Assembly: GCA_947630865.1 (NCBI GenBank)
Contig: CANRJE010000002.1
Coordinates: forward strand, 1-49,042
DNA length: 49,042 nucleotides
Source: an uncultured Bacilli bacterium
GTDB lineage: Bacteria > Bacillota_I > Bacilli_A > RF39 > UBA660
Direction of reading: 5' to 3'
A model generated the notes under the pieces. The model was not told the origin of the DNA, did not search any database, and was given only the letters and a program-made list of their open reading frames with translations. The position numbers and the translations under genes were made by a program. This document shows, piece by piece, positions 45,910 through 49,042 of this stretch; positions within the stretch are counted from its first letter, which is position 1, and each line of letters begins with the position of its first letter.

Positions 45910-46659
45910 ATGAATGAGTTTAATAAAACTTTTCTTCTAGAAATGATAAAATCACCAATCGTTATTGCTTTTATTATTATAGGTTTATTTGGTTTATTTT
46001 TTTATAAAAAATTTCGTGGATTCATGGGAGAATTTTGGGTTCGAAAAGAATTATCAAAATTACCTAAAAAGGAATATTATGTTTTAAATAATATAATGTT
46101 AGAAAGTAGCAGAGGAATGCATCAAATAGATCATATTGTTGTTTCTAAATATGGCATTTTTGTTATTGAAATGAAAAACTTTTTTGGTCTTATTAAAGGA
46201 AATGAATATGATAAAAAGTGGATTCAACAATTTCATAATAAGAAGTATTATTTTCAAAATCCCATTCATCAAAATTATGGACATCTTCAGGCTTTAATAG
46301 AAATATTAGGATTACAAAAAGATGTTTTTATTCCAATTGTTTGTATTTCAAATCAAGCTAACTTAAAAGTAAAAACTACGAGTAATGTAGTTCAATTAGA
46401 TTTTTTAATTTCTTTAATAAAATCTTATCAAACTGTTATTGTAAATTGTGATTTGCAAACAATTAAAACAAAATTAGAAATGTTAAATATTAAAGATTAT
46501 AAAAAAAGACGTCTGCATATTTCAAATATTAAAGAAAATGTTAAAAATGAAGATATGATTTGTCCAAAATGTGGTGGTAAATTAATTGAAAAAAATGGTA
46601 AATATGGTAAATTTGTTGGTTGTAGTAATTTTCCTAAATGTCGTTTTGTAAAAAAATGA
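45910..46659 (+). CDS. NERD-domain protein with N-terminal TM and C-terminal topoisomerase-type C4 zinc ribbon
   Basis: GEFWVRKEL, HQIDHIVVSKYGIFVIEMKN (NERD core). CPKCGGKLIEKNGKYGKFVGCSNFPKCRF. Confidence 0.75.
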   Translation: MNEFNKTFLLEMIKSPIVIAFIIIGLFGLFFYKKFRGFMGEFWVRKELSKLPKKEYYVLNNIMLESSRGMHQIDHIVVSKYGIFVIEMKNFFGLIKGNEYDKKWIQQFHNKKYYFQNPIHQNYGHLQALIEILGLQKDVFIPIVCISNQANLKVKTTSNVVQLDFLISLIKSYQTVIVNCDLQTIKTKLEMLNIKDYKKRRLHISNIKENVKNEDMICPKCGGKLIEKNGKYGKFVGCSNFPKCRFVKK

Positions 46660-46718
46660 CATCTTTTTATCTATATCATAATCTTTTTTTAATGAATTTC
46701 TAATTTACTTTTAACCAT

Positions 46719-46760
46719 AAAAAAATTCCTTCTATATAAAATATAAACGGAATTTTTTTT
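46719..46760. terminator. bidirectional intrinsic terminator between the convergent NERD gene and pyrG
   Basis: AAAAAATTCC / GGAATTTTTT stem with A-run and T-run flanks and a 19-nt loop. Confidence 0.6.
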
Positions 46761-46784
46761 ATAATTTTTTAAATTTATTATTTT

Positions 46785-48430
<1,646 letters not shown>

Positions 48431-48495
48431 TAAAAATAACTAATTTGTTTAGTAGTTTAAAAGAATTTGTCTAAATTTAACAATAAAAAAAAATA

Positions 48496-48524
48496 TTGTC
48501 AACATATCAGACATTTGCTATAAT
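48496..48524 (+). promoter_or_regulatory. sigma-A promoter of small-peptide cassette 1
   Basis: TTGTCA, 17-nt spacer, TGCTATAAT (extended -10). Confidence 0.6.
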
Positions 48525-48584
48525 GACTTTGGAACATTTAATTGTTGGGTGATGCCAAACTTCTTAATGAAGGGAGGCGATAGT

Positions 48585-48668
48585 ATGAACAAGAAGGATT
48601 TTTTAATTCTATCTTTAGTAATTCTTATTTTCCTTTTAGTATTATTATTATTTATAGTTTTAATATAA
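48585..48668 (+). CDS. 27-aa hydrophobic peptide, candidate type I toxin (cassette 1)
   Basis: GGGAGG RBS 8 nt upstream. MNKKDFLILSLVILIFLLVLLLFIVLI. Not in the ORF track (too short). Paralog at 48912. Confidence 0.5.
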   Translation: MNKKDFLILSLVILIFLLVLLLFIVLI

Positions 48669-48780
48669 AAGAAAATCACCTAAACAACATGCTTAGGTGA
48701 TTAACCATATAAAATATTGGCAACACTCAACATGTGAAAATTAAGTGTTCCTTTTTTATTTTATGAAGTTTCCTTCATCT
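48665..48780 (-). ncRNA. predicted antisense small RNA convergent with cassette 1 (candidate type I antitoxin)
   Basis: Minus-strand promoter TTGACA (48815-48810), 17-nt spacer, TGTTAGTAT (-10 at 48792-48787). Minus-oriented terminator: 10-bp hairpin 48674-48702 followed on the minus strand by TTTCTTTTAT. Ends are approximate. Confidence 0.4.
48722..48762 (+). terminator. plus-strand intrinsic terminator of cassette 1 mRNA
   Basis: AACACT / AGTGTT stem followed by CCTTTTTTATTTT. Confidence 0.5.
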
Positions 48781-48822
48781 ATATACATACTAACATAATT
48801 TTAATGATTTGTCAAAGTAGCA

Positions 48823-48851
48823 TTGTCAACATATCAGACATTTGTTATAAT
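48823..48851 (+). promoter_or_regulatory. sigma-A promoter of small-peptide cassette 2
   Basis: TTGTCA, 17-nt spacer, TGTTATAAT. Near-identical to the cassette 1 promoter. Confidence 0.6.
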
Positions 48852-48911
48852 GACTTTGGAACATTTAATAGTTGGGTGAAGCCGAACTTCATAAAGAAGG
48901 GAGGTGATAAT

Positions 48912-48992
48912 ATGTCAAAGAAAGATTTTTTAATATCTTCATTGATTATCATTATCCTTTTACTTATAGGTTTATTGTTTATAACACTATAA
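48912..48992 (+). CDS. 26-aa hydrophobic peptide, candidate type I toxin (cassette 2)
   Basis: GGGAGGTG RBS. MSKKDFLISSLIIIILLLIGLLFITL. The 62-aa track ORF (48804..48992) is an in-frame upstream extension running across the promoter. Confidence 0.5.
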   Translation: MSKKDFLISSLIIIILLLIGLLFITL

Positions 48993-49042
48993 TAAAAGAG
49001 TCACCTAAACAACATGCTTAGGTGATTAACCAAATAATTGGC

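Follow-up and report, generated by a model that had tools for sequence, protein, structure and literature searches.

Tandem small-peptide cassettes with a predicted convergent antisense RNA resemble a type I toxin-antitoxin module in uncultured gut Bacilli

Toxin-antitoxin (TA) systems of type I combine a hydrophobic or transmembrane peptide, encoded by an open reading frame (ORF) of less than about 60 amino acids (aa), with a gene for an antisense RNA that is complementary to the toxin mRNA. The ShoB and Ibs-type toxins of Escherichia coli are about 19-27 aa long and almost wholly hydrophobic. In the Gram-positive families antitoxin and toxin mRNA overlap at the latter's 3' end (PMC8594479), and the type I systems of Bacillus subtilis employ strategies other than long inactive mRNAs (PMC6562991). 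In hok and aapA, base pairing between 5' and 3' end closes the full-length toxin mRNA in a very stable fold, together with hairpins that sequester the Shine-Dalgarno sequence (SD) (PMC6733600). Fst and RNAII, like SprA1 and SprA1as, interact not within the overlap but at 5' repeats close to the ribosome-binding site, and among the very short hydrophobic toxins of E. coli, which sometimes occur in tandem copies (PMC2887945), Sib overlaps ibs fully and OhsC is divergent from shoB (PMC8594479). Here we describe two tandem small-peptide cassettes, each of a kind that carries a predicted antisense RNA gene on the opposite strand, at the end of a 49,042-nucleotide (nt) stretch of DNA from an uncultured Bacilli bacterium; this whole stretch is referred to below as the window.

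We put the probability that each cassette is a self-contained type I TA-like module of two convergent, overlapping transcripts at roughly 75%, with the transcripts, the toxicity, the repression and the RNase involved all inferred. What sequence analysis itself delivers is signals for promoters and terminators on each strand, selection on the peptide as a coding sequence, strand-specific conservation of structure in the antisense RNA, a covarying pairing between the ends of the mRNA, and sequestration of the SD. The predicted layout is closest to those of txpA/RatA and bsrG/SR4, and the cassette fits a previously undescribed type I variant outside any named family. A preliminary description of the window had already arrived at a type I TA-like reading, which becomes much stronger with the element that it overlooked, a predicted gene for a convergent antisense RNA. 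This gene has a terminator and a conserved promoter of its own, and its RNA three conserved stem-loops (SL1 to SL3). The features of the two cassettes are as follows.

48496..48524, plus strand: predicted promoter of the cassette 1 peptide mRNA; -35 TTGTCA, 17-nt spacer, TGC-TATAAT extended -10; 11/12 matches
48531..48558, plus strand: predicted 5' end of the peptide mRNA, GGAACAUUUAAUUGUUGGGUG-A-UGCCAA, the 5' strand of a long-distance pairing; start placed at ~48531
48560..48577, plus strand: local hairpin CUUCUU...GAAGGG sequestering the GGGAGG SD (48572-48577) in the minimum free energy (MFE) fold of cassette 1
48585..48668, plus strand: ORF1, putative toxin of 27 aa, MNKKDFLILSLVILIFLLVLLLFIVLI; charged N-terminus, then one predicted transmembrane helix
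48664..48780, minus strand: predicted antisense RNA (putative antitoxin), ~115 nt, three stem-loops; folding free energy (dG) -36.8, z = -6.4; covariance model R1, 122 bits
48664..48702, minus strand: SL3, predicted intrinsic terminator of the antisense RNA, 13-bp stem 48702..48674 then UUCUUUUAU; from the terminator scan
48717..48757, no single strand: SL2 region; on the minus strand a stable antisense stem-loop, on the plus strand a weak hairpin and U-tract that end the mRNA, and the 3' partner in the long-distance pairing
48763..48778, minus strand: SL1, 5'-proximal hairpin AUGAAG-GAAA-CUUCAU, beyond the predicted mRNA 3' end
48787..48815, minus strand: predicted promoter of the antisense RNA; -35 TTGACA (48815-48810), 17-nt spacer, TGT-TAGTAT extended -10 (48792-48787); 10/12 matches, TG present, start placed at ~48780
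48823..48851, plus strand: predicted promoter of the cassette 2 peptide mRNA; TTGTCA-17-TGT-TATAAT; 11/12 matches, TG present
48858..48885, plus strand: 5' leader of the cassette 2 mRNA, GGAACAUUUAAUAGUUGGGUG then AAGCCGA
48912..48992, plus strand: ORF2, 26 aa, MSKKDFLISSLIIIILLLIGLLFITL; 91% nt-identical to the ORFs of two related loci, L013 and L003
49001..49042, no strand assigned: SL3 hairpin of cassette 2 (49001-49025), then the start of the SL2 flank (TTGGC); from the repeat, terminator and motif scans

The last 550 nt of the window contain two head-to-tail copies of a module of ~330 nt, cassette 1 at 48495-48822 and cassette 2 from 48822 up to the end of the window. A direct repeat of 178 nt, at 48495-48672 and 48822-48999, recurs with a period of 327 nt, and a second repeated block, 3' of each stop codon, with a period of 325 nt. 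The repeat and promoter scans agree with the preliminary description on the two cassettes, on the 327-nt period and on promoters at 48496 and 48823, with its coordinates and counts shifted by one base at places. Its near-consensus promoters (TTGTCA-17-TG(C/T)TATAAT) each score 11/12 with the upstream TG present, and both cassettes have the leader of ~55 nt, the GGGAGG SD and the leader hairpin that keeps its stem and changes its loop (CTTC-TTAAT-GAAG in one, CTTC-ATAAA-GAAG in the other). The 32-nt block said to be identical after each stop codon, TCACCTAAACAACATGCTTAGGTGATTAACCA, indeed lies at 48676-48707 and at 49001-49032; its 25-nt core and the leader motif GGAACATTTAATWGTTGGGTG each gave two matches in the window against 0.00 expected. 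The count of only two differences in 58 nt holds for the first 57 nt, the full 58 containing three; between the -35 box and the ATG, 8 of 89 nt differ. The coding regions have diverged as reported: 30 of 78 nt and 8 of 26 aa are different between the two ORFs, and one ORF is longer by a codon. The window stops inside cassette 2, at the start of its second 3' stem-loop, so that its SL2, SL1 and antisense promoter fall outside.

Further copies of the 32-nt block and of the leader, for which a search had been proposed, were sought in metagenome collections. An exact look-up of the window's PyrG protein, made to reach past position 49042, had no match. The leader motif matched 76 metagenome contigs. 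The 25-nt hairpin core matched a single GTDB contig (L001), from a metagenome-assembled genome of an uncultured Bacilli bacterium from rabbit, which starts inside a third peptide variant. The SL3 hairpin of L001 has the same 25 nt as the window, and this contig may be where the equivalent array of a related genome ends. Searched in translation, the mechanically extended ORF described below returned seven unnamed proteins, which lie on contigs L002-L014. In all, about 80 related loci were recovered from gut metagenomes, with human gut, sheep and rabbit as the sample origins given by several contig names. The hairpin core found nothing in JGI metagenomes or viral contigs, the leader motif nothing in viral contigs, and cassette 1 had no blastn match in plasmid and phage collections. 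In the literature searched, nothing matched the peptide strings, nor type I TA together with Erysipelotrichaceae.

The antisense RNA is predicted to run from ~48780 to ~48666, with SL1 at its 5' end, SL2 in the middle and SL3 as its terminator. The identical 32-nt block is not a generic 3' element and is better explained as this terminator hairpin, followed on the minus strand by TTCTTTTAT; on the plus strand SL3 stands in the 3' untranslated region (UTR), directly after the stop codon. The terminator scan found such minus-strand terminators at 48702..48674 and 49025..49001, two against 0.2 expected, and on the minus strand only. SL3 as a bidirectional terminator was ruled out, as no T-run follows it on the plus strand. 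Given the predicted transcript geometry, the antisense RNA would match the final ~90 nt of the peptide mRNA, stop codon included, with full complementarity. As far as sequence can tell, from the conserved promoter, terminator and strand-specific structure, the gene for an antisense RNA complementary to a toxin mRNA that characterizes the type I class is present.

Signals for this RNA recur across the family. A minus-strand -10 box stands at the equivalent position in 63 of 65 family loci, TGn precedes it in 54 of the 65, and the terminator T-run is found in 58 of the 65; covariance model R1, built for the antisense RNA, finds the module in nearly all related loci searched. In an alignment of 59 antisense sequences, a pair count finds 96.2% of cells paired, compared with 29-46% for slid partners, and none of 500 shuffles reached the observed value; RNAalifold recovers SL2 and SL3 from the same alignment. 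The 7-bp core of SL2 is fully paired in 59/59 sequences when read on the minus strand and in 3/59 when read on the plus strand. The asymmetry arises because the variable positions alternate between C-G or U-A and U.G, and a wobble that reads G.U on the minus strand becomes C.A on the plus strand. The mean dG of the hairpin is -11.6 kcal/mol on the minus and -4.6 kcal/mol on the plus strand. SL3 keeps its stem, its loop is free to vary and its closing pair covaries (UA 24, CG 14, GC 9), and SL1 is present in 58/59 homologues with different stems, such as GCAAG/CUUGC and AUGCAU/AUGCAU. We regard the strand asymmetry as the decisive point: judged from the alignment, the structure of the predicted antisense RNA is conserved strand-specifically and selected on its own strand.

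The closest relatives in design are the B. subtilis systems txpA/RatA, bsrG/SR4, bsrE/SR5 and yonT/SR6, which likewise have an antitoxin of ~100 nt with several stem-loops, a terminator loop that is the likely recognition loop, a toxin ribosome-binding site held in a short GC-rich helix, and a low-GC Gram-positive host (PMC6562991, PMC8594479). By analogy, SL3 is a candidate site for loop-loop recognition. The cassette shares with the TxpA/BsrG type both the predicted convergent transcripts overlapping at their 3' ends and the ribosome-binding site in a short helix. Unlike the B. subtilis toxins, its peptide is shorter (26-27 aa), carries its charges at the N-terminus and shows no sequence relationship to them, and its mRNA has a covarying 5'-3' long-distance pairing. 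Neither a TxpA/BsrG protein profile (the Pfam search would cover Hol_Tox if it is in the library) nor a RatA/SR4 Rfam model was matched. The Rfam comparison that had been suggested gave no meaningful match: at E<=10 the region 46000-49042 has none except three chance matches to unrelated families, and at gathering thresholds the whole 49-kb window contains no family and no riboswitch, T-box, tRNA, rRNA or ribosomal-protein leader.

The plus-strand product of the module is the peptide. The pattern M-x-KKDFLI followed by a hydrophobic stretch, in ORFs of 26-27 aa, was borne out, with lengths of 27 (ORF1) and 26 (ORF2) and MxKKD followed by ~22 hydrophobic residues; both lie well within the size range of hydrophobic type I toxins given above. 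Some 62 distinct homologues, 25-31 aa in length, follow the consensus MxKKD[FL]LIxSL[IV]III[FL]LL..LLF[IV]VL[IK]. Over 45 distinct 27-codon ORFs of the family, the ratio of nonsynonymous to synonymous polymorphism (pN/pS) is 0.35 and diversity at codon positions 1/2/3 is 0.30/0.13/0.40, position 2 being the most conserved, from which it follows that the ORF is a real coding sequence; the peptide is under purifying selection across the family. In accordance with the earlier remark that the peptides belong to no nameable toxin family, they had no match beyond noise in Pfam or NCBIfam at E<=10 and no meaningful one in PHROGs or PADLOC. ShoB and Ibs resemble the cassette in peptide design and tandem copies; they differ in showing no sequence similarity (Pfam), in belonging to another phylum and in having another antisense geometry.

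ORFs of 26-27 aa fall below the usual minimum lengths of gene callers. Mechanical calling gives instead extended ORFs that run through the untranslated leader, at 48549-48668 (plus strand, 39 aa, GTG start) and 48804-48992 (plus strand, 62 aa, ATG start), and the public gene calls of homologues P0001-P0007, of 51-76 aa and all unnamed, are similarly over-extended, so that the true peptide is annotated nowhere.

The conservation of the ORF bears on what the functional product is. It could be argued that the minus-strand small RNA is that product and acts in trans, with the small ORF incidental or a decoy target, as no structured element is better conserved than the antisense RNA, which also exists in orphan copies that have no intact ORF. 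We consider this very improbable, because start codon, SD, length and hydrophobic pattern are all retained in the ORF, which has a pN/pS of 0.35 together with synonymous divergence, and the mRNA has a covarying long-distance structure of its own. An equally different role for the peptide, as the precursor of a secreted hydrophobic signalling peptide or bacteriocin of the SHP or PrgQ type, appears far-fetched to us. Its size and shape, MxKK and then a hydrophobic stretch, do recall such precursors, and prgQ is likewise under antisense control. However, the entire hydrophobic stretch is conserved and not merely a C-terminal mature peptide, Pfam and NCBIfam return no family, and the neighbours differ at every locus: no linked receptor gene of the Rgg, PrgX or PlcR type, as known for RRNPP pheromones, and no processing protease or ABC exporter is consistently adjacent.

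The peptide mRNA is predicted to be ~225 nt long, starting at ~48531 (GGAACA) and ending at a hairpin and T-run at 48719-48757. Its -10 box (at least 4/6 matches) stands at the same position in 75 of 76 family upstream regions, with TGn in 47. In the MFE fold of the cassette 1 mRNA (dG -62.6, z = -6.6), nt 1-21 and 23-28 pair with 48717-48751, that is with both arms of the 3' hairpin, whose loop is bulged out. The pairing of 5' leader and 3' end appears in the MFE folds of 56/57 family mRNAs, the exception being an error in calling the 3' end, and at least four of five SD nucleotides are paired in 51/57. The duplex of the leader with SL2 at the 3' end has a mean energy of -30.9 kcal/mol, the local hairpin of the plus strand one of -4.6.

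Invariance of the leader proves nothing, since it was the leader motif that retrieved most of the loci. The helix that extends the pairing covaries, leader U[G/A]CC with target GG[C/U]A (G-C 27, A-U 12, G.U 7, A.C 0), and this covariation is specific to the long-distance pairing, as the target nucleotide is the SL2 bulge, constrained by no other predicted helix. In addition, four complete variant paralogs, found through R1 and not through the leader motif, have diverged leaders and keep the 5'-3' closure by compensatory changes, as in the leader/target combinations GGAUACGUUUGA/UCAAACGUAUCC in L069 and GGAUAUACUUAAU/GUUAGGUAUAUCC in L048.

This closure is the trait of the full-length toxin mRNAs of hok/Sok and of aapA/IsoA from Helicobacter pylori, and the cassette has in common with them both the 5'-3' pairing and an SD-sequestering hairpin. 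Those systems are Gram-negative, and their antisense RNA overlaps the 5' region or the ORF, whereas that of the cassette overlaps the 3' end. Moreover, in aapA the long-distance pairing itself masks the SD, a task left in the cassette to a separate local hairpin; part of the antisense target is occupied by the 5' leader in the cassette, unlike in either system, and a leader ORF like mok of hok/Sok is lacking. No Pfam match points to Hok or AapA homology (Hok_Gef being covered if in the library), and the antisense gene at the 3' end places the cassette outside this group. Its predicted convergent RNAs and putative toxin recall Fst/RNAII (par of pAD1) and SprA1/SprA1as, Gram-positive systems in which convergent RNAs have a terminator region in common and a small hydrophobic toxin is encoded (PMC8594479), with no Pfam or Rfam match to an Fst-type peptide or RNA. 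Unlike in Fst/RNAII, the leader has the same sense as antisense SL2 and is not complementary to it, so leader and antisense RNA would compete for one site in the 3' UTR. An interaction of the Fst/RNAII type at the 5' end was rejected, the non-overlapping 5' part of the antisense RNA showing no excess complementarity to the mRNA 5' UTR (mean z -0.22).

Put together as a mechanism, a strong sigma-A-type promoter would give rise to the ~225-nt mRNA from GGAACA, which would encode the 26-27 aa membrane peptide and end at the weak hairpin and U-tract. Its first 21-28 nt would pair with both arms of the 3' hairpin and close the whole molecule, with the SD held in the adjacent local hairpin, and for these two reasons the full-length mRNA would be stable and poorly translated. 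The convergent minus-strand promoter would supply the ~115-nt RNA with three stem-loops, the 3' ~90 nt of which would be a perfect complement of the stop codon and 3' UTR of the mRNA. If RatA and SR4 (PMC6562991) are a guide, pairing probably begins at the SL3 loops and would proceed to a long duplex that either leads to RNase III-type decay or keeps translation off; surplus peptide would enter the membrane and arrest growth.

A further refinement, possible although we find it rather doubtful, is that the mRNA's 5' end is a built-in mimic of the antitoxin. The leader is approximately antisense SL2 minus its loop, and the duplex that it forms (mean -31 kcal/mol) lies directly upstream of the U-tract and might be the real terminator stem, which would make a three-way switch from local hairpin to 5'-3' closure to antisense duplex. 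Under this idea the local plus-strand hairpin next to the U-tract may be kept deliberately imperfect. Such a three-way RNA switch, if it exists, would be an arrangement undescribed for Gram-positive type I systems.

The genomic distribution of the cassettes bears on their nature as well. Neighbours vary by locus, with pyrG in the window and pnp/cotJC, folD and a HIGH_NTase1-family gene, hydrolase/PEMT genes or a Mob_Pre/TrwB-like element elsewhere, and tandem or clustered copies occur in at least eight loci (the window, L021, L023, L028, L031, L048, L069 and L078). Being short, repeated, intergenic and found in many contexts, the cassettes might be taken for a selfish or miniature repeat element, or even an assembly artefact, with no expression of its own, the more so as contigs often break inside a cassette (L001 begins within one). 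To this we assign a close to negligible probability: the cassettes have no terminal inverted repeats and no transposase, one strand carries promoter, SD, ORF and terminator and the other promoter and terminator, selection acts on coding and on RNA pairing, and assemblies made independently, from several sources, contain them.

At least five copies have a dead toxin gene next to an intact antisense module (L039, L060, L059, the second copy of L031 at L031:11502-11619 and the third of L069 at L069:5551-5688), the defects being deletion of the SD, start codon and N-terminus, loss of the ATG, or 5' truncation. The converse, a toxin without antitoxin, was seen solely in L003 (3660-4079), which keeps promoter, leader, SD, ORF and SL3 and has lost SL2, SL1 and the antisense promoter, everything 3' of SL3 being replaced by the upstream region of a PEMT/ICMT-family gene. 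At least five against one is the asymmetry predicted for a TA pair, in numbers that are small.

Several points weigh against a toxin-antitoxin pair. A strong toxin would not be expected to tolerate the loss seen in L003, except where the antisense RNA comes from another copy, and the peptide is without the polar or aromatic C-terminal tail found in many type I toxins. All transcript boundaries are derived from consensus signals in DNA of 21-29% GC across the window, in which -10-like hexamers are common, and the weakness of the terminator hairpin on the plus strand (mean -4.6 kcal/mol) makes the mRNA 3' end uncertain. Part of the invariance of the 21-nt leader is due to the way in which most loci were retrieved, which leaves the extension helix and the four variant paralogs as the only independent tests of the pairing, and the sequences are related, so that covariation counts overstate the number of independent events.

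Some of the same observations could be accommodated by a small membrane protein under cis-antisense control that is no toxin, for instance a stress-induced membrane modulator or a sporulation-associated micro-protein. The evidence at the RNA level speaks for tight regulation rather than for toxicity, the missing polar tail and the ORF of L003 without an antisense module agree with such a role, and the cassettes of L001 and L002 adjoin the cotJ spore-coat operon. We nevertheless think it unlikely. The context is unconserved (pyrG, pnp/cotJC, folD, hydrolase, Mob_Pre element), the cassette is duplicated in tandem, ORF-inactivated copies retain the antisense gene, and to silence the translation of a hydrophobic peptide of 27 aa in three layers is typical of type I toxins (PMC6562991, PMC6733600). 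The type I TA-like module thus remains the reading that we prefer.

How the two cassettes of the window came to look so alike outside their ORFs is a separate matter. The preliminary description had taken flanks better conserved than the ORFs as a hallmark of type I TA loci. However, the 36 nt upstream of the transcription start, a promoter spacer included, are 97% identical between the two window cassettes and only 19-69% identical to other loci; since the spacer is unconserved in the family, RNA selection was rejected as the main cause of the contrast within the window, which is largely mosaic. ORF1 is 94% identical to the ORF of L075 and only 62% identical to ORF2, with a synonymous divergence (pS) of 0.85, and the SL3 loop is identical between the two cassettes. 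Together, the subtype matches of the ORFs and the homogeneous flanks imply an array of two widespread peptide subtypes set in locally homogenised regulatory flanks, the homogenisation being due to gene conversion or ORF exchange. The case for selection at the RNA level accordingly draws on the family comparison and not on the window alone.

Some related loci and neighbouring features deserve mention in their own right. Sister subfamilies (antisense modules at L069:4163-4298 and L048:6844-6984 with upstream ORFs, and also in L022, L049, L047 and L072) are built in the same way and are almost identical in SL1 and the antisense-promoter region, with different peptides, such as MTKREKSQFFIILLLFTIIFILMYVIFFR, MTNREKSQF... 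and the KK-tailed MKKKDLLISFLIFIIILLIVSVMILCIKK; leader, SL2 and SL3 sequences have changed together. In L001 (235-1279) and L002 (5413-6407) the cassette stands directly upstream of a convergent cotJC/cotJB spore-coat operon, and on account of this adjacency the carriers are likely spore-formers. Genes for a Mob_Pre relaxase and a TrwB/DUF87-like ATPase lie a few kb from the cassette at L004:5001-8662 (also in L005), which suggests that the L004 cassette is carried on a mobilisable element in that genome. On the short metagenome contig L012 (1947-2102), a peptide ORF that has neither promoter nor leader is fused in frame to the N-terminus MSDEGVCKMAISYNKLWKLLIDNK, resembling the start of an XRE/HTH_26-type regulator; this may be a chimeric assembly or a rearrangement. 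Within the window, the upstream region of pyrG (48387-48451, minus strand), a gene that in B. subtilis has a CTP-sensing leader, contains an extended -10 promoter-like site (48451..48422) that stands back to back with the promoter region of cassette 1. The plus-strand gene at 45910-46659, two genes away from the cassettes, encodes a protein of 249 aa with a NERD nuclease-related domain, a C-terminal topoisomerase-type C4 zinc ribbon and, judging by its translation, a transmembrane segment at the N-terminus.

If our reading is correct, these cassettes add a type I TA family that is invisible to current annotation, in which gene callers produce spurious extended ORFs of 39-76 aa in its place. 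Its carriers would be uncultured, very AT-rich Bacilli of the gut, represented in human, sheep, rabbit and other gut metagenomes, and the family would join the Gram-positive layout of 3' overlap with a 5'-3' closure of the mRNA like that of hok and aapA. The natural variation, some 60 sequences together with diverged paralogs, is enough to dissect the RNA logic by covariation ahead of experiments, and the compact cassette could be reused as a device for post-transcriptional control.

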